DNA of 64,000 bases from Escherichia phage REP2 (OQ174501.1), one strand, 5' to 3'; counted from the stretch's first letter, positions 45,394-53,202 are shown. Numbers and translations are program-made. The notes: generated from the sequence alone by a model not told the origin.

Positions 45394-45844
45394 GTTAGAG
45401 ATTAGAAGTAATTTTAGATGGCCATCATGTGCATTAAGTAATTTCGCTCAATGGCCTTTCGTTATGGATGGTATTCAATTTGGAGGTCTCGAAGGATTCC
45501 TCCAAGGATGCAAGGTGAAAAATGTTGAACAACAACGTCGTATATTTGGGTTATCTGGGCTTGCCGCCCAACAAGCTGGAAGGTCTTATGCTAGAGCTCA
45601 GGACCGTGGGACCCTCTTCTGGCTTGGAGTTCCGTTTTCAAGATACTCCCCGGCGTGGAAAGAATTATACACAAATGCATATTTTGAAGCAGCGATCCAA
45701 AACAAGGGCTTTCGTGATGCATTACAAGCCTCGAAAGGAAAAGTTTTGAAGCACAGCATGGCTAGTGGTCTAACAAAAGATGATACAATACTAACCGAAG
45801 CTGAATTTATTAATGTGTTAAACCTATTAAGAGATTCTCTATGA
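45380..45844 (+). CDS. NADAR/YbiA-family protein (predicted ADP-ribose-processing hydrolase)
   Basis: N-terminal F-x-LSNF...F..DG..F...E signature and overall size match the NADAR (DUF1768) family as I recall it. Confidence 0.55.
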   Translation: MKMSELEIRSNFRWPSCALSNFAQWPFVMDGIQFGGLEGFLQGCKVKNVEQQRRIFGLSGLAAQQAGRSYARAQDRGTLFWLGVPFSRYSPAWKELYTNAYFEAAIQNKGFRDALQASKGKVLKHSMASGLTKDDTILTEAEFINVLNLLRDSL

Positions 45845-46704
45845 AGCCTACTATTTTAACTGATATTGATGGAGTATGTTTAAGCTGGCAATCAGGTCTT
45901 CCTTATTTTGCCCAGAAATATAATCTTCCGTTAGAACATATTTTAAAAATGATCCAGGATGAGAAATTTATTTCTCCTGGTAAACTATTTAATTGCGATG
46001 AAGAACTTGGCGTTAAGCTAATTGAAAAATACAATCGTTCGGATTTTATTCGATACTTGTCTCCATATAAAGATGCCCTGTGTGTAATTAACAAATTAAA
46101 AGAAGATTATAATTTTGTAGCTGTTACAGCATTGGGTGATTCTATTGACGCTCTGTTGAATCGTCAATTTAATTTGAATGCTCTTTTTCCTGGTGCCTTC
46201 TCAGAAGTAATGATGTGTGGTCATGATTCTTCAAAAGAAGAGTTGTTCAAAAAGGCAAAAGAGAAATATAACGTAATTTGTTATATTGACGATCTCGCTC
46301 ACCACTGCGACCACGCGAGTGAAATATTAAATGTTCCGGTTTATTGGATGGCTCGAGGAGAGCGTGACAATATTCCAAAAACTGCTCAGCGAGTTTATAC
46401 ATGGAATGATATAGAAAATAAGCTTTTTTCACCGAAGGAAAATAAAGAAAGTTTTGATAGTGAAAAAGCTATAAAAGATGTAATTGAGAAGATGGTTAAA
46501 AACGATTCTTTTCGTTGGAACACTACCTGGAGAACTCCTGGATTTAATCCGTATAATCCATATTATACACATCCATATAATCCATATTATACACACCCGT
46601 ATCATATGAATCCATTCCATACGTGGAGTTATACTAAGCCTGGTGATGCAGGGTATTTTAATAGATTTACTAGTGGTGATAATATTTTCCAAGGAGCATT
46701 CTAA
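45841..46704 (+). CDS. HAD-superfamily hydrolase-like protein with Pro/Tyr-rich repeat tail
   Basis: Motif I DIDGV at the N-terminus and a D-D pair (YIDDLAHH) typical of HAD phosphatases/nucleotidases; ATGA overlap with the NADAR gene; C-terminal NPYNPYYTHPY repeats. Confidence 0.5.
   Translation: MKPTILTDIDGVCLSWQSGLPYFAQKYNLPLEHILKMIQDEKFISPGKLFNCDEELGVKLIEKYNRSDFIRYLSPYKDALCVINKLKEDYNFVAVTALGDSIDALLNRQFNLNALFPGAFSEVMMCGHDSSKEELFKKAKEKYNVICYIDDLAHHCDHASEILNVPVYWMARGERDNIPKTAQRVYTWNDIENKLFSPKENKESFDSEKAIKDVIEKMVKNDSFRWNTTWRTPGFNPYNPYYTHPYNPYYTHPYHMNPFHTWSYTKPGDAGYFNRFTSGDNIFQGAF
46553..46600 (+). repeat. Tandem 24-nt direct repeat (2 units) inside the HAD-like gene
   Basis: ATAATCCATATTATACACATCCAT (46553-46576) repeated as ATAATCCATATTATACACACCCGT (46577-46600); encodes the duplicated NPYYTHPY. 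Confidence 0.6.
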
Positions 46705-46973
46705 TGTTTGTCGTTCACACTATTTATGAAAATGAAGGTAATACTACACGTGATTACGGTCACGTAAATCAATTTTTTAGATGCAATCCAGAATTCCGAG
46801 CTCAAAAAGACGAACGAATTTTTAAAAAATGTGTAGAGCAAGGTTTCATTTATATCAAGCACTGGATGCAAGGAAATAAAGTTAGAACTACATATCATAA
46901 GTCTTTACCTGAGCTTAATGATGAATTGATTTATAATAGAGCTGTAAACCAAACCTTGAAGGATGAGCAATGA
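46704..46973 (+). CDS. Hypothetical protein (89 aa)
   Basis: ORF with overlapping start; immediately upstream of the ligase. Confidence 0.45.
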   Translation: MFVVHTIYENEGNTTRDYGHVNQFFRCNPEFRAQKDERIFKKCVEQGFIYIKHWMQGNKVRTTYHKSLPELNDELIYNRAVNQTLKDEQ

Positions 46974-48430
46974 TTCTTAAAATTCTGAATGAAATAGCAT
47001 CTATTGGATCAACTAAGCAGAAGCAAGCAATTCTTGAAAAGAATAAAGATAATGAATTGCTTAAACGGGTATATCGTCTGACTTATTCTCGTGGGTTACA
47101 GTATTATATCAAGAAATGGCCTAAACCTGGTATTGCTACCCAGAGTTTTGGAATGCTGACTATTACCGATATGCTTGACTTCATTGAATTCACGTTAGCT
47201 ACTCGGAAATTGACCGGAAATGCTGCAATTGAGGAATTGACTGGATATATCACCGATGGTAAAAAGGATGATGTTGAAGTTTTGCGTCGAGTGATGATGC
47301 GAGACCTTGAATGCGGTGCTTCAGTATCTATTGCAAACAAAGTTTGGCCAGGTTTAATTCCTGAACAACCTCAAATGCTGGCAAGTTCTTATGATGAAAA
47401 AGGCATTAATAAGAATATCAAATTTCCAGCCTTTGCCCAGTTAAAAGCTGATGGAGCTCGGTGTTTTGCTGAAGTCCGAGGTGATGAATTAGATGATGTT
47501 CGTCTTTTATCACGAGCTGGTAATGAATATCTAGGATTAGATCTTCTTAAGGAAGAGTTAATCAAAATGACCGCTGAAGCCCGCCAGATTCATCCAGAAG
47601 GCGTGTTAATTGATGGCGAATTGGTATATCATGAGCAAGTTGAAAAAGAGCCAGAAGGTCTAGATTTTCTTTTTGATGCTCCTGAAATCAGTAAAGCTAA
47701 AGAGTTTGCCGAAGTAGCTGAATCTCGTACTGCATCTAATGGCATCGCCAATAAATCTTTAAAGGGAACCATTTCTGAAAAAGAAGCTCAATGCATGAAG
47801 TTTCAGGTCTGGGATTATGTCCCGTTGGTAGAAATATACGGTCTTCCTGCATTTCGTTTGAAATATGATGTACGTTTTTCTAAACTAGAACAAATGACAT
47901 CAGGTTATGATAAAGTAATTTTAATTGAAAACCAGGTAGTAAATAACCTAGATGAAGCTAAGGTAATTTATAAAAAGTATATTGATCAAGGTCTTGAAGG
48001 TATTATTCTCAAAAATACCGATGGATTATGGGAAAATGCTCGTTCAAAAAATCTTTATAAATTTAAAGAAGTAATTGATGTTGATTTAAAAATTGTAGGA
48101 ATTTATCCTCACCGTAAAGACCCTACTAAAGCAGGTGGTTTCATTCTTGAATCAGAGTGTGGAAAAATTAAAGTAAATGCTGGTTCAGGCTTAAAAGATA
48201 AAGCCGGTATAAAATCGCATGAACTTGATCGTACTCGCATTATGGAAAACCAAAATTATTATATTGGAAAAATTCTAGAGTGCGAATGCAACGGCTGGGT
48301 AAAATTAGATGGACGTACTGATTACGTTAAGCTATTTCTTCCAATTGCAATTCGTTTACGTGAAGATAAAACTAAAGCTAATACGTTCGAAGATGTATTT
48401 GGCGATTTTCATGAGGTAACTGGTTTATGA
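46970..48430 (+). CDS. 30: ATP-dependent DNA ligase
   Basis: 486 codons; translation MILKILNEIASIGSTKQKQAILEKNKDNELLKRVYRLTYSRGLQYYIKKWPKPG... matches T4 DNA ligase as recalled, including the KADG adenylation motif. Confidence 0.95.
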   Translation: MILKILNEIASIGSTKQKQAILEKNKDNELLKRVYRLTYSRGLQYYIKKWPKPGIATQSFGMLTITDMLDFIEFTLATRKLTGNAAIEELTGYITDGKKDDVEVLRRVMMRDLECGASVSIANKVWPGLIPEQPQMLASSYDEKGINKNIKFPAFAQLKADGARCFAEVRGDELDDVRLLSRAGNEYLGLDLLKEELIKMTAEARQIHPEGVLIDGELVYHEQVEKEPEGLDFLFDAPEISKAKEFAEVAESRTASNGIANKSLKGTISEKEAQCMKFQVWDYVPLVEIYGLPAFRLKYDVRFSKLEQMTSGYDKVILIENQVVNNLDEAKVIYKKYIDQGLEGIILKNTDGLWENARSKNLYKFKEVIDVDLKIVGIYPHRKDPTKAGGFILESECGKIKVNAGSGLKDKAGIKSHELDRTRIMENQNYYIGKILECECNGWVKLDGRTDYVKLFLPIAIRLREDKTKANTFEDVFGDFHEVTGL

Positions 48431-48612
48431 AAGCTTACTTAGAAACAATTGTCGTGGCTCAAAAAGAAGGTGGAGATGTTTCCACTGCGGTATCGCAGGT
48501 TATTCTTGAATTCCCAGATAAACTAGCATATGATGAATTCACGGAAAGATTTGATCCATATGAAAAAGGTCCAAAGTTTGAAGTATATCGTACTCTTTTA
48601 GCTCTCTATTAA
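48427..48612 (+). CDS. Hypothetical protein (61 aa)
   Basis: ORF with ATGA overlap to the ligase; terminator follows. Confidence 0.45.
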   Translation: MKAYLETIVVAQKEGGDVSTAVSQVILEFPDKLAYDEFTERFDPYEKGPKFEVYRTLLALY

Positions 48613-48614
48613 TT

Positions 48615-48640
48615 AAAGGCCTTCGGGCCTTTAATTTTAT
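48615..48640 (+). terminator. Terminator-like hairpin AAAGGCC-TTCG-GGCCTTT plus AATTTTAT
   Basis: Perfect 7-bp stem with UUCG loop and a short T-rich tail. Confidence 0.6.
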
Positions 48641-48645
48641 AAATA
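48638..48645 (+). promoter_or_regulatory. Late promoter TATAAATA (alt)
   Basis: Exact TATAAATA about 24 nt upstream of the alt ATG. Confidence 0.65.
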
Positions 48646-48668
48646 GAATAAACACTAGAGAGGATAAC

Positions 48669-50762
48669 ATGGAACTTATTACAGAATTATTTGACGAAGA
48701 TACTACTCTTCCGATTACAAACTTAAATCCAAAGAAGAAAATACCACAAATTTTTTCAGTTCATGTTGATGATGCAATTGAACAACCAGGCTTTCGTTTA
48801 TGTACCTATACATCTGGAGGTGATACTAATCGTGATTTAAAGATGGGCGATAAAATGATGCACATTGTTCCTTTTACATTAACTGCTAAAGGTTCAATTG
48901 CTAAATTAAAAGGTCTTGGTCCAAGCCCGATTAATTATATCAATTCAGTTTTTACTGTTGCAATGCAAACAATGCGTCAATATAAAATTGATGCCTGTAT
49001 GCTTCGTATTCTTAAGTCTAAAACCGCCGGTCAAGCTCGACAAATTCAACTTATTGCTGATAGACTCATCCGCAGTCGTTCAGGTGGCAGATACGTCCTT
49101 CTTAAGGAACTCTGGGATTACGATAAAAAGTATGCATATATTCTTATACATCGTAAAAATGTATCACTAGAAGACATTCCAGGAGTTCCAGAAATTAGCA
49201 CCGAGCTTTTTACTAAAGTTGAATCGAAGGTCGGTGATGTTTATATCAATAAAGATACTGGAGCTCAAGTAACCAAAAATGAGGCAATTGCTGCATCTAT
49301 TGCACAAGAAAATGATAAACGTTCTGACCAAGCCGTAATCGTTAAAGTTAAAATTTCCCGTAGAGCAATTGCACAAAGTCAGTCATTGGAATCTTCTAGA
49401 TTTGAAAGTGAATTATTCCAGAAGTATGAATCTACAGCAGCTAATTTTAATAAACCAGCTACTGCACCTTTAATTCCCGAAGCAGAAGAAATGAAAATTG
49501 GAATTAATTCATTAGCTTCTAAAACAAAGGCAGCAAAAATTATTGCTGAAGGAACGGCAGATGAACTTCACTATGATTATAAATTCTTTCCAATGAGTCA
49601 AGTCGGTGAAGTTTCAGAAAAAATTAAAGAAGTAATTTTTAATGCAATTAAAAATGAACCAACTACTTCAATAAAATGTTTAGAGAAATACGCAGCAGCT
49701 GTAAATCAATTCTTTGAAGATTATAAAGATAAATGGCTTGCTAATCATAATAAAAATCGTAAAGGACAACCAGATGAAGTCTGGGAAGAAATAACTAAAA
49801 ATTCCTGGAACGCAGCAAAAACTAAATTCCTCAAACGAATGATTTACAGTTTTTCTGGAATTGGTGCTGGTCCAATGATTGATATTACTATTGCCCGCGA
49901 TGGTTCTAAATATACTCCATCACAAAAGCGTGGCATTAGAGAATATTGCGGTTCAGGATATACTGACATCAATAATCTTCTTTTAGGTCGTTACAATCCA
50001 GAACGATACGATGTAATGAGTGAAAAAGAAATTGAATCTGCTATAAATAACTTAGATTCAGCTTTTGAAAATGGTGACCGTATACCAGAAGGCATTACAG
50101 TTTATCGTGCTCAAAGTATGACTGCTCCTATATATGAAGCGTTAGTTAAAAATAAAGTGTTCTACTTCAGAAATTTTGTATCTACTTCTTTAACTCCTAT
50201 CATTTTTGGACGTTTTGGAATCACACATGCTGGTATTGGTCTTTTAGAACCAGAAGCTCGTAACGAATTAACAGTTGATAAAAATGAAGAAGGAATAACT
50301 ATTAATCCAAACGAAATAAGAGCGTATAAAGAAAATCCTGAATATGTTAAAGTTCAAATAGGATGGGCAATTGATGGAGCTCATAAAGTTAATGTTGTAT
50401 ATCCAGGAAGTCTCGGAATAGCAACAGAAGCTGAAGTTATTCTACCACGCGGATTGATGGTCAAGGTTAATAAAATAACTGATGCTTCTAATAATGACGG
50501 AACAACATCTAATAATACAAAACTCATTCAAGCTGAAGTTATGACCACGGAAGAGCTCACCGAATCGGTAATCTATGATGGAGACCATTTAATGGAAACT
50601 GGTGAATTGGTTGCAATGACAGGTGATATTGAAATAGAAGACAGAGTTGACTTTGCATCATTTGTTTCATCAAATATTAAACAGAAAGTAGAATCATCTC
50701 TTGGAATTATTGCGTCTTGCATAGATATTACAAACATGCCTTACAAGTTCGTTCAAGGATAA
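48669..50762 (+). CDS. alt: Alt-type ADP-ribosyltransferase (head-packaged, injected)
   Basis: 697 codons; N-terminus MELITELFDEDTTLPITNLNPKKKIPQIFSVHVDD... matches T4 Alt as recalled; R-S-E type motifs (VYRAQ, FVSTSL, EAEVILPRG). Confidence 0.85.
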   Translation: MELITELFDEDTTLPITNLNPKKKIPQIFSVHVDDAIEQPGFRLCTYTSGGDTNRDLKMGDKMMHIVPFTLTAKGSIAKLKGLGPSPINYINSVFTVAMQTMRQYKIDACMLRILKSKTAGQARQIQLIADRLIRSRSGGRYVLLKELWDYDKKYAYILIHRKNVSLEDIPGVPEISTELFTKVESKVGDVYINKDTGAQVTKNEAIAASIAQENDKRSDQAVIVKVKISRRAIAQSQSLESSRFESELFQKYESTAANFNKPATAPLIPEAEEMKIGINSLASKTKAAKIIAEGTADELHYDYKFFPMSQVGEVSEKIKEVIFNAIKNEPTTSIKCLEKYAAAVNQFFEDYKDKWLANHNKNRKGQPDEVWEEITKNSWNAAKTKFLKRMIYSFSGIGAGPMIDITIARDGSKYTPSQKRGIREYCGSGYTDINNLLLGRYNPERYDVMSEKEIESAINNLDSAFENGDRIPEGITVYRAQSMTAPIYEALVKNKVFYFRNFVSTSLTPIIFGRFGITHAGIGLLEPEARNELTVDKNEEGITINPNEIRAYKENPEYVKVQIGWAIDGAHKVNVVYPGSLGIATEAEVILPRGLMVKVNKITDASNNDGTTSNNTKLIQAEVMTTEELTESVIYDGDHLMETGELVAMTGDIEIEDRVDFASFVSSNIKQKVESSLGIIASCIDITNMPYKFVQG

Positions 50763-50765
50763 ATC

Positions 50766-52823
50766 ATGGAACTTATTACAGAATTATTTGACGGCGCCGA
50801 AGCGCCGGTTGTTAACTTAAATCCTAAGCATAAAATACCTCAAATTTTTGCTATTCAAGCCGGTGAAGAAAGCGTTCTTCCTGGATTTCGATTTTGTACA
50901 TACACCTCTGGCGGTGATACGAATAAAAACGTTAAGCCAGGCGACAAAATGATGCATATCGTAATGATAGGTGTTAATGAGAAACTATCATTAGTTAAGC
51001 TTAAAAACTTGGGTGGAAATCCAATTGGCGTCATTAATGCTGTTTTTGATACTGCTCTTCAAACAATGAAGCAGTATAAAATTGATGCATGCCTATTCCG
51101 CGTACTAAAAAGTAAAACAAATGGCGCAGCTCGTCAAATGCAAGTTATTGCTGACCGTTTAGTACGTACTAAAGGAGCAGGTCGATATGTTCTTTTAAAG
51201 GAAATCTGGGATTATGATAAAAAGTACGCATATATTATGGTTTACCGTAAAAATGCCAATTTAGAAGACATTCCAGGTGTACCTCCTATTTCAACCGAGT
51301 TATTCACAAAAGTTGAATCAAAGGTTGGTGATGTTTATGTAGACGTTAAAACAGGTAATGCTGTTCCTAAAGCTGTTGCTGTTGCTGCTTCTATTGCTTT
51401 AGAAAATGATAAGCGCACGGATCAAGCTGTTATTCAGAAAACTAAAATTAGTCGTCGATTAGCAGCACAAGCTCAATATTCTACTGTTGATGCTTCACTT
51501 CAGGGTGATAGCTTCGCTGCTAAGAAATATCAAGAGTTTGAATCTAAAGTTCCGGTATATAAAGCAGAAGGACCAATGAACTCTGGCGTTATTCAGATTG
51601 GTTCAAACTTTAGCAAAGGAGCTATCGGTGGTATGAGAAGTGCTTCTCGTTTTAAATCTAGTGATTATGAACTCGAAAGCTTCCGAAATCATATTGCATT
51701 GGCTCATGCACGTTTACGTGATCCATCTATCAAGTTACAGAGCGATATAACATATCAAGGTTCTCAAGAATATTTAAAGAATAAAGAATTCTTTGATTAT
51801 AAAACTGATAAAATTTTAAGCGATCTTGCTGATATTAATATTTCTAATAGCTTTGATGTTATTAAGAAAATTATCAATGATTTAGTTAAAGGTTCTAAAG
51901 CTACACCAGATGAAAAGACAGCTATTATTCAATTTGTAATGAATGGAATTTATAAATTAATTGATGAATCTACTGCTCAGGCATATGAATATGCAAGCAC
52001 TGAAGTAACTCCAAAAGGATTAACTCAGGCTGAATCTGATGTAATTGAAGATTATTGCGCAGATTCATATGTTGAAATGAACTCGTTCCTTCTAGGTAAA
52101 CCTGATTCTACACGTGAAGAATATATGGAACGTGCTATTAAGCACATTGAGACGTTGGATTCTGCATTTGCTAAAGGTTCAGTTCTTCCTCCGGGAACTA
52201 CACTTTACCGTGGCCAAGAAGTTACTTTTAAAACTTTACGTCATAATATAGAAAATAAAATGTTCTATTTCAAGAACTTTGTATCTACTTCACTCAAGCC
52301 AAATATCTTCGGTGAATATGGTAAAAATTATATGGCTTTAGATGACGCTGGAACAGTATTTTCTGGTGAAGGAGAAGGTTCAGTTGATGCTGAAGATTTA
52401 ATGCATATGGGTAGTCATTCTACATATGCGAATGAAGACGCTGAAACTAATGTAGGTATGGTAATTAAAGGAGCTGAACGAGTTAAAGTTATCGTTCCAG
52501 GTCATTTATCAGGATTTCCATCCGAAGCTGAAGTTATTTTGCCGCGTGGAATTTTACTGAAGATTAATAAAGTAAGTACGTACATGATGAAAGAAACCGC
52601 TTATAATAAGTATCTAATTGAAGGCACGATTGTTCCTCCTTCTGAACAATTAGAGGAATCGGTATATGATGGTGACCATTTGATGGAAACCGGAGAAGTT
52701 CGTCCAATGGCTGGATTTAATCAATTCCTTGTAGAAGAATCAAAAGAAGAGGAAAGCGAAGTTTCTCAAATCTTAGCTTCTTTGGTTAACATCAACGGAA
52801 TGTCTAAAAAGTTCAAAATGTAG
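50766..52823 (+). CDS. Second Alt-like ADP-ribosyltransferase paralogue (685 aa)
   Basis: Same N-terminus (MELITELFD...NLNPK.KIPQIF) and same catalytic motifs (LYRGQ, FVSTSL, EAEVILPRG) as alt, with a divergent middle region; starts 4 nt after the alt stop. Confidence 0.8.
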   Translation: MELITELFDGAEAPVVNLNPKHKIPQIFAIQAGEESVLPGFRFCTYTSGGDTNKNVKPGDKMMHIVMIGVNEKLSLVKLKNLGGNPIGVINAVFDTALQTMKQYKIDACLFRVLKSKTNGAARQMQVIADRLVRTKGAGRYVLLKEIWDYDKKYAYIMVYRKNANLEDIPGVPPISTELFTKVESKVGDVYVDVKTGNAVPKAVAVAASIALENDKRTDQAVIQKTKISRRLAAQAQYSTVDASLQGDSFAAKKYQEFESKVPVYKAEGPMNSGVIQIGSNFSKGAIGGMRSASRFKSSDYELESFRNHIALAHARLRDPSIKLQSDITYQGSQEYLKNKEFFDYKTDKILSDLADINISNSFDVIKKIINDLVKGSKATPDEKTAIIQFVMNGIYKLIDESTAQAYEYASTEVTPKGLTQAESDVIEDYCADSYVEMNSFLLGKPDSTREEYMERAIKHIETLDSAFAKGSVLPPGTTLYRGQEVTFKTLRHNIENKMFYFKNFVSTSLKPNIFGEYGKNYMALDDAGTVFSGEGEGSVDAEDLMHMGSHSTYANEDAETNVGMVIKGAERVKVIVPGHLSGFPSEAEVILPRGILLKINKVSTYMMKETAYNKYLIEGTIVPPSEQLEESVYDGDHLMETGEVRPMAGFNQFLVEESKEEESEVSQILASLVNINGMSKKFKM

Positions 52824-52852
52824 TTTACAAGTCCCTCGTGTTGTGTTATAGT
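52823..52852 (+). promoter_or_regulatory. T4-type early promoter, second copy of the alc promoter-leader module
   Basis: GTTTAC at 52823-52828, 18-nt spacer, TATAGT at 52847-52852; near-identical to 36983-37040. Confidence 0.55.
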
Positions 52853-52883
52853 AGTTTTACTGACATAACATGAGGAACACAAA

Positions 52884-53174
52884 ATGAAATCTTCTTTGCG
52901 CTTTTTAGGTCAAGAACTCGTCGTTGAGGGCGTTATTCCCGCTGATAACGCTTTCAATGAAGCAGTTTATGATGAATTTATTAAAATTTTCGGAACCGAT
53001 AAAAAGTTTGGAATTTTTCCTTCTGAAAATTTTTCAAAGCCAGAACAGACTGAAAGTATTTTCCAAGGTGTAGTAACAGGTAAATTTGAGTCAGAAGCTC
53101 CGGTAAAAATTGAGGTTTATATTGAAGAAACCTCTGTTGCTTCAGTTGCTGCTTTTATTTCATTCCGTAAATAA
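52884..53174 (+). CDS. Hypothetical protein (96 aa)
   Basis: ORF with RBS GAGGAA; followed by a bidirectional terminator. Confidence 0.5.
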   Translation: MKSSLRFLGQELVVEGVIPADNAFNEAVYDEFIKIFGTDKKFGIFPSENFSKPEQTESIFQGVVTGKFESEAPVKIEVYIEETSVASVAAFISFRK

Positions 53175-53180
53175 AAATAT

Positions 53181-53198
53181 GGGGACCTTTCGGTCCCC
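53181..53198. terminator. Bidirectional terminator hairpin GGGGACC-TTTC-GGTCCCC between convergent genes
   Basis: Perfect 7-bp stem between the plus-strand ORF ending at 53174 and minus-strand gene 54 ending at 53203; A/T-rich on both sides. Confidence 0.6.
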
Positions 53199-53202
53199 AT
53201 TG

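Follow-up and report, generated by a model that had tools for sequence, protein, structure and literature searches.

Alt is a textbook example of a phage enzyme that is injected with the DNA to reprogram the host cell, and nearly all that is known of it comes from phage T4. The alt locus of Escherichia phage REP2 (OQ174501.1) raises the question of what two such genes in tandem mean, and of what the second might do during infection. The DNA analysed here is a stretch of 64,000 nucleotides of this phage (the window), and all coordinates are those of the window. An earlier note, made from the sequence alone, had proposed that two tandem genes for Alt-type ADP-ribosyltransferases (ARTs) are present, and the open reading frames (ORFs) were found exactly where it had placed them, with mutual identity and family matches as described below:

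48669-50762, + strand: alt (Alt-A), 697 amino acids, with a 'T2-type' payload
50766-52823, + strand: second alt paralogue (Alt-B), 685 amino acids

The reading favoured here, to which a probability of about 0.7 is given, is that these two co-transcribed late genes yield two packaged, gp21-processed and ejected arginine-specific ARTs with different or partly overlapping host targets.

At this locus a phage of the genus Tequatrovirus carries two paralogous alt genes in a conserved tandem arrangement. Over 48400-53200 the sequence matches Escherichia phage REP3 (OQ174502.1) with 100% identity; both genes are annotated there as Alt-like ADP-ribosyltransferases, and 541 phage records match this region. 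The pair as such is already known, both genes being annotated as Alt-like ADP-ribosyltransferases in hundreds of RefSeq/GenBank records. Further traces are the gene names alta and altb in phage IME08, a remark on duplication in the T4 record, and the report of Nolan et al. 2006 (PMC1524935), in which alt duplications in T4-like phages were noted. Alt-B is named 'altb' in IME08 and 'alt.-2' in RB51, where the gene likewise encodes 685 amino acids. This wide existing annotation was absent from the earlier note, as were a C-terminal gp21 site with its propeptide and the orthology of Alt-B to T4 alt.-1/alt.-2.

Paralogy, domains and catalytic motifs

Alt-A and Alt-B share 41% identity by BLASTP (E 1e-160), a paralogy far beyond chance. 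Identity is 68% in the N-terminal domain (residues 1-238), 36% in the ART domain (Alt-A 411-630) and 42% at the C-terminus, and falls to 21% in the centre (239-410), which is effectively unrelated between the two. Alignment of the two proteins with each other and with T4 Alt, a check suggested at the outset, confirmed both the paralogy and its regional divergence, including the difference of the central regions to which the earlier note had drawn attention. Both proteins start with MELITELFD. They share their length and three-domain layout with T4 Alt (NP_049811), a head-packaged and ejected mono-ADP-ribosyltransferase; Alt-B differs from it in being 41% identical overall, with an unrelated centre. 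The domains and catalytic motifs are as follows:

Alt-A domains: N-terminal 1-238; variable centre 239-410; ART ~411-630
Alt-B domains: N-terminal alpha/beta 1-238 (50766-51479); helical centre 239-415 (51480-52010); ART 416-628 (52011-52649)
Alt-A catalytic motifs: VYRAQ 478-482, FVSTSL 503-508 and EAEVILPRG 587-595, with R480, S505-T-S507 and E587-A-E589
Alt-B catalytic motifs: LYRGQ 480-484, FVSTSL 505-510 and EAEVILPRG 587-595, with R482, S507-T-S509 and E587-A-E589

Pfam family PF03496 (ADPrib_exo_Tox), which both proteins have in common with the bacterial ART toxins C3 exoenzyme, Vis and iota/CDTa/Vip2, was matched by Alt-A with 129.9 bits and by Alt-B with 72.2 bits (cut-off 23.4). PHROG 802 ('Alt-like RNA polymerase ADP-ribosyltransferase') was matched over the full length of both, at Alt-A 1-696 (1.2e-272) and Alt-B 1-685 (1.6e-256). 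The positions of the motifs bear out the view that the Y-R, STS and EAEVILPRG motifs are intact in both proteins. In an alignment of 22 sequences (A1), 42-98% identical to Alt-B, residues R482, S507, S509, E587 and E589 (Alt-B numbering) are invariant. An AlphaFold2 model of Alt-B, with a predicted local distance difference test score (pLDDT) of 73, shows an alpha/beta domain at ~13-220, an all-helical middle at ~240-415 and the ART domain at ~420-625, between termini modelled as disordered (residues 1-12 and 629-685, pLDDT below 50). The ART fold is present in the model. A sequence search of the PDB returned no relatives. These profile matches and motifs support the assignment of Alt-A and Alt-B as two intact Alt-type ARTs. 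The E-x-E signature is that of arginine-specific transferases of the R-S-E clade, and arginine-directed mono-ADP-ribosylation is accordingly a prediction from this motif for both proteins.

An alternative is that Alt-B is a decaying or non-catalytic duplicate, either a pseudo-enzyme or a purely structural component of the prohead core. In keeping with this, phage T4 holds only the Alt-B fragments alt.-1 and alt.-2, and the Pfam ART score of Alt-B lies below that of Alt-A (72 vs 130 bits). Against it stand the invariant catalytic residues, the modelled fold and the ratio of nonsynonymous to synonymous substitution rates (dN/dS). Compared between this phage, T2 and RB51, Alt-B has a dN/dS of 0.037-0.047 for the whole protein and ~0.03 for the ART domain, which points to strong purifying selection and not to a decaying copy. 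The alternative is regarded as highly improbable.

Transcription and translation signals

The signals from which expression of the pair was judged are these:

48638-48645, + strand: T4-type late promoter TATAAATA, 23 nt upstream of the Alt-A ATG
50042-50049, + strand: second perfect TATAAATA, within the Alt-A gene and 717 nt ahead of the Alt-B ATG
50755-50759, + strand: Shine-Dalgarno sequence AAGGA of Alt-B, within the last Alt-A codons, 6 nt before the ATG
53179-53200, bidirectional: terminator hairpin with a 9-bp stem, between alt.-3 and the convergent gene 54

In T4, T2 and RB51 the late promoter stands in the same place ahead of alt. This promoter, and a location flanked by gene 30/alt.1 on one side and by gene 54 on the other, are further points of likeness to T4 alt, which is a late gene by time-resolved omics (PMC9697503). 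Of the single late promoter that had been proposed for both genes, the conserved copy at 48638 stands; its singleness is to be qualified, as a second + strand copy lies inside Alt-A. This internal copy overlaps the codons of a conserved A-I-N-N; T2 and RB51 share it, and T4-type alt lacks it. It may serve Alt-B as an internal late promoter, or it may be a mere coding coincidence. The number of TATAAATA copies was rejected as statistical evidence, since 11 were observed against 9.4 expected in this AT-rich window and the motif alone is therefore not significant.

Alt-B has no intergenic promoter of its own: the Alt-A stop codon TAA (50760-50762) is followed by a 3-nt spacer (ATC) and then by the Alt-B ATG at 50766, and the gene is presumed to be co-transcribed with Alt-A. 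In the proposed scheme, phage-modified RNA polymerase would start late at TATAAATA (48638) and read through both genes as far as the hairpin at 53179-53200, the probable 3' end of the late alt transcript. For translation, Alt-B would use a Shine-Dalgarno sequence of its own, which lies within the last codons of Alt-A.

Propeptides, prohead protease sites and probable packaging

T4 Alt is present at ~40 copies per head (PMC9026906). Mass spectrometry has shown it to be trimmed at both ends by the prohead protease gp21, after ITE-6 and LTE-619 (Ali et al. 2017, PMC5694885). The first cut takes off the hexapeptide MELITE; the second removes 63 C-terminal residues, leaving a trimmed protein of 68.2 kDa (PMC5694885). 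At the positions mapped in T4 Alt, gp21 motifs are found in both window proteins, namely ITE-6 and LTE-632 in Alt-A and ITE-6 and LEE-631 in Alt-B. Both share with T4 Alt the MELITE start, a C-terminal L-x-E|S aligned with LTE-619, the sequence YDGDHLMETGE and the R/STS/ExE residues. YDGDHLMETGE lies within the C-terminal propeptide, which is acidic in both and comprises 65 amino acids in Alt-A and 54 in Alt-B (52659-52820). In the 22-sequence alignment, E6, E631, Y634-D-G-D637, E641, G643 and E644 are also invariant.

Each protein consists of an alpha/beta domain that is specific to Tevenvirinae, a helical domain in the middle and, last, a C3/Vis/iota-like ART domain, with a propeptide of 6 amino acids at the N-terminus and an acidic one of 54-65 amino acids at the C-terminus. 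By analogy with T4 Alt, both precursors (77.9 kDa for Alt-A, 76.0 kDa for Alt-B) would enter the prohead core, Alt-B presumably by the same route. Cleavage by gp21 after ITE-6 and L-x-E (632 in Alt-A, 631 in Alt-B) would then give enzymes of ~70 kDa (predicted mature masses 70.1 and 69.2 kDa), which would stay in the head until they are ejected together with the DNA. That Alt-B takes the Alt route, from the core through gp21 processing to ejection, is judged likely in view of both gp21 sites, the propeptide motif, the N-domain, the conserved late promoter and the fact that T4 alt is expressed late. Phage internal proteins offer a parallel: they too are packaged by way of the prohead core, gp21 cuts them behind a glutamate, and they leave the head along with the DNA (PMC9026906). 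They differ in that a 10-residue capsid-targeting sequence has been found experimentally to be sufficient for their targeting, whereas Alt carries two propeptides.

The idea of a shared N-terminal packaging signal held in part. MELITELFD is indeed common to both proteins and MELITE is removed by gp21 in T4 Alt, but a capsid-targeting role has been demonstrated for IPIII and not for Alt (PMC9026906). The 'packaging signal' is better described as a shared N-terminal propeptide and N-domain, together with an equally conserved C-terminal propeptide. The N-domain is Pfam family PF26846 ('Tevenvirinae_ADPRT'), precomputed on P0001 (98% identical to Alt-B) and on all full-length relatives. Among 1.84 billion proteins it has only 69 cluster representatives, nearly all 600-712 amino acids in length with the domain at the N-terminus, and 8 of 10 divergent representatives tested have a C-terminal ART domain. 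A use of the N-domain as a general packaging handle for payloads other than ARTs was considered and found unsupported, the matches being nearly all Alt-sized and 8/10 carrying an ART.

Alt-B could also be an active ART that stays outside the head and acts where it is made, for example on host or phage proteins of the late phase. T4 ModA and ModB act without packaging (PMC5512222), and no report of Alt-B in virions was found. Like Alt, ModA and ModB are R-S-E clade ARTs of the Alt/VIP2 group, and their targets are host proteins of transcription and translation (PMC5512222); in contrast to Alt, they are small, made after infection, not packaged and devoid of N-domain and propeptides (PMC5512222). 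Alt-B, unlike them, has the complete Alt architecture (N-domain, both gp21 sites and C-terminal propeptide), lies behind a late promoter beside head and tail genes, and bears an N-domain that is essentially confined to Alt-sized proteins. An unpackaged Alt-B is therefore thought improbable.

Fate of the second gene in T4

The order in T4 (NC_000866) is alt (682 amino acids), alt.-1 (61 amino acids), alt.-2 (67 amino acids) and alt.-3, and the T4 record annotates alt.-1 and alt.-2 (NP_049810, NP_049809) as an old duplication of the first part of alt. Almost letter for letter, alt.-1 corresponds to Alt-B 1-54 and alt.-2 to Alt-B 62-116. The PHROG families of the two fragments (phrog_23015 and phrog_15247) match Alt-B at 1.9e-39 and 3.2e-38, compared with 1e-21 and 2e-19 for Alt-A, a difference of some 18 orders of magnitude. 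The fragments are orthologous to Alt-B, being collinear, near-identical and in the same genomic position; the gene is whole here and in fragments in T4. Comparison with the T4 region (L001 5066-5451) placed the differences at the following features:

50925-50929, + strand: A5 run in Alt-B; A4 in T4, where the frameshift leads to the alt.-1 stop and the alt.-2 restart
51105-51113, + strand: left-hand member of the pair of 9-bp direct repeats CTAAAAAGT; bounds on the left the segment that T4 lacks
52804-52812, + strand: right copy of CTAAAAAGT; T4 keeps one copy of the repeat

The deletion between the CTAAAAAGT repeats measures 1,699 bp, and Alt-B ~114-680 is missing from T4, with the centre and the whole ART domain gone. 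Together, the 1-nt deletion and the 1,699-bp deletion mark alt.-1/alt.-2 as the wreck of a full-length Alt-B orthologue. The earlier note had allowed that the second ORF might prove to be the orthologue of a characterised T4 neighbour of alt without ART activity; the T4 counterparts turned out to be uncharacterised fragments, so that the proposal is not refuted on this ground. In 91 phage records the sequence runs unbroken across the T4-type deletion junction. The Alt-B payload, which is the part that T4 has lost, is present at 80% coverage or more in 401 phage records, T2 and RB51 among them.

Distribution and modularity of the locus

Phages T2, RB51 and IME08 have the same order as REP2 (alt.1, A, B, alt.-3, gene 54), and a second Alt-like gene is also present in RB68. 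Alt-A is 97-99% identical to the Alt proteins of T2 and RB51. Relative to T4 Alt, it is 99% identical in residues 1-238 (synonymous divergence, dS, 0.16) and 95% at the C-terminus (631-697, dS 0.05), compared with 32% in the centre (239-410, dS 1.3) and 66% in the ART domain (411-630, dS 1.3); positions 49475-49905 of the window have no match to T4 at the DNA level. Alt-A is, from this comparison, a mosaic with a different payload allele, 'T2-type', at 49383-50560 (residues ~239-630). The 'T2-type' payload of Alt-A occurs in 335 records and the T4-type payload in 175. Some phages combine T4-type Alt with Alt-B; G4498, pSs-1 and G3G6, for example, are present in both record lists.

The alta and altb genes of IME08, a member of Dhakavirus, stand in the same tandem order. 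Alt-B and altb are 47% identical overall, against 32-33% in the cross comparisons. By domain, Alt-B and altb share 45% (N-domain), 45% (centre), 56% (ART) and 62% (C-terminus), and Alt-A and alta 46%, 67%, 95% and 54%, respectively. Judged by these identities, the payloads are clearly orthologous across the genera, Alt-A with alta and Alt-B with altb. Within IME08, alta and altb share 66% in the N-domain, 18% in the centre, 40% in the ART domain and 42% at the C-terminus. The N-domains follow the phage instead of the paralogue, with 66-68% identity within a phage compared with 45-46% between orthologues of different genera, a pattern that would fit a shared partner specific to each phage. On the simplest reading, the end modules belong to the phage backbone, having either co-evolved with its head or been homogenised in the distant past, and the payloads between them diverge or are swapped independently. 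The 95% identity of the Alt-A and alta ART domains, set against 46% for their N-domains, suggests that payloads have been exchanged between genera.

The duplication is old, as dS between Alt-A and Alt-B is saturated (1.3-1.6); the presence of the pair in both Tequatrovirus and Dhakavirus leads to the same conclusion. Recent gene conversion as the source of the shared N-terminus was rejected, the N-domain dS being saturated (1.6) and the longest identical run of DNA only 28 nt. Ancient concerted evolution of the N-domains is possible.

In four metagenome proteins (P0003, P0004, P0005 and P0007) the N-terminus is that of Alt-A and the body that of Alt-B, with breakpoints near residues 54, 107, 195 and 222, respectively. 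Two chimera contigs (L005 5001-7055 and L006 5001-7061) have a single alt gene between alt.1 and alt.-3. No single-gene A/B chimera was found in isolate genomes, the best isolates splitting the query into two pieces spanning 4.7 kb. The chimera, present in two metagenome contigs, was not accepted as an established natural state; such genes may be rare deletion recombinants or assembly artefacts.

Predicted activity and targets of the two enzymes

In the new host, each enzyme would use nicotinamide adenine dinucleotide (NAD+) to mono-ADP-ribosylate arginines, as expected from what is known of the family. Alt-A corresponds to T4 Alt, for which RNA polymerase alpha is one of several substrates. 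'Alteration', the ADP-ribosylation of RNA polymerase alpha at Arg265, is known only for T4 Alt (PMC1524935, PMC9026906). It is plausible that Alt-A and Alt-B modify different, possibly overlapping sets of host proteins, because their middle domains are unrelated (21%), their ART domains are 36% identical and their loops before ExE differ (VYPGSL-GIATEAE in Alt-A, VPGHLSGFPSEAE in Alt-B). More tentatively, Alt-B may be a second injected effector with a target set of its own, for example a defence, translation or RNA-decay factor; this stronger form is thought possible, though short of probable.

The loop between STS and ExE is highly variable among Alt types (A1 columns ~610-632). The JS10-type AltB (P0012) has in it an additional, strongly acidic insertion of ~22 residues (…SSSDVGEVDDEEVEWEEDEFG…). 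The loop is a candidate determinant of specificity.

Alternatively, Alt-B may be packaged and active but redundant with Alt-A, sharing its main targets (such as RNA polymerase alpha) and serving dosage or as a back-up against host escape. The R/STS/ExE residues and the identical EAEVILPRG strand common to both proteins are what redundancy would lead one to expect, T4 Alt is itself non-essential (PMC9026906), and Alt-B has been lost from T4 and ~90 records with no obvious penalty. Two distinct payload types are nevertheless kept across two genera, and paralogues with saturated dS and centres that cannot be aligned (21%) are hard to reconcile with simple redundancy, which rarely lasts so long at a dN/dS of ~0.04. 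Redundancy is considered unlikely, although less so than an Alt-B that is left out of the head.

Several points weigh against two injected enzymes with different targets. The claim of different targets derives from sequence divergence only, and the model of Alt-B is of moderate confidence (pLDDT 73). The gp21 motif [LI]-x-E is short and occurs seven times in Alt-B, so that its presence alone is weak evidence and the processing argument rests on invariance across the alignment. Targeting by the Alt propeptides or the N-domain is an open question even for T4 Alt (Ali et al., PMC5694885). No virion proteomics, ejection data or enzymology for Alt-B were found in the literature; virion mass spectrometry of phages has reported a single ADP-ribosyltransferase (PMC13119998, PMC5384007), and the 'proteomics' of PMC10698182 is in silico only. 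Finally, T4 and ~90 other records do well without Alt-B, which must be dispensable in at least some hosts.

Neighbouring genes and other features

The genes and signals that surround the pair are listed here:

46970-48430: DNA ligase gp30
48427-48612: alt.1, 61 amino acids, Pfam Phage_blade (PF24647), 6.8e-28
48615-48632, + strand: hairpin AAAGGCC-TTCG-GGCCTTT followed by AATTTTAT, directly 3' of the alt.1 stop, read from the sequence
52824-52852, + strand: sigma-70 or T4-early-like promoter (TTTACA, 17 nt, TG-n-TATAGT), directly 3' of the Alt-B stop and before alt.-3
52884-53174, + strand: alt.-3, 96 amino acids, DUF5498, downstream of Alt-B and not an ART

The start of alt.1 overlaps the ligase stop by 4 nt (ATGA), and Phage_blade is a recently defined Pfam family. 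The hairpin at 48615-48632 is likely to be the terminator of the upstream early/middle transcription unit; it is kept in T4, T2, RB51 and L005, and was not listed by a simple terminator scan. The early-like promoter at 52824-52852 is retained in T4 just beyond its deletion junction. Beyond alt.-3 lie the convergent baseplate and tail genes 54, 48 and 29.

Upstream of 30.1, a gp30.2-like ORF of 287 amino acids (45841-46704, + strand) has at its C-terminal end a peptide repeated in tandem, in which Asn, Pro, Tyr and His are abundant (…GFNPYNPYYTHPYNPYYTHPYHMNPFH…). Early proteins of T-even phages do not usually contain such a repeat. In T4 the gp30.2 ORF measures 837 bp, compared with 864 bp here.

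Implications for T-even phage biology

With respect to this locus, T4 is the exception: a second Alt, strongly conserved, is present in most of its sequenced T-even relatives, and T4 has only the wreck of it left. If Alt-B is injected and has targets of its own, the current account of how T-even phages take over the host early in infection is incomplete, and a conserved layer of takeover or counter-defence would have been missed because the model phage deleted the gene. Phages used in therapy and typing, many of which have the pair, would then deliver two ADP-ribosylating effectors, and Alt-B could contribute to the known phenotypic differences between T2/T6 and T4 on defended hosts. As a corollary, the alt locus would be a two-slot cassette, in which backbone-specific N- and C-terminal packaging modules frame exchangeable middle and ART payloads.

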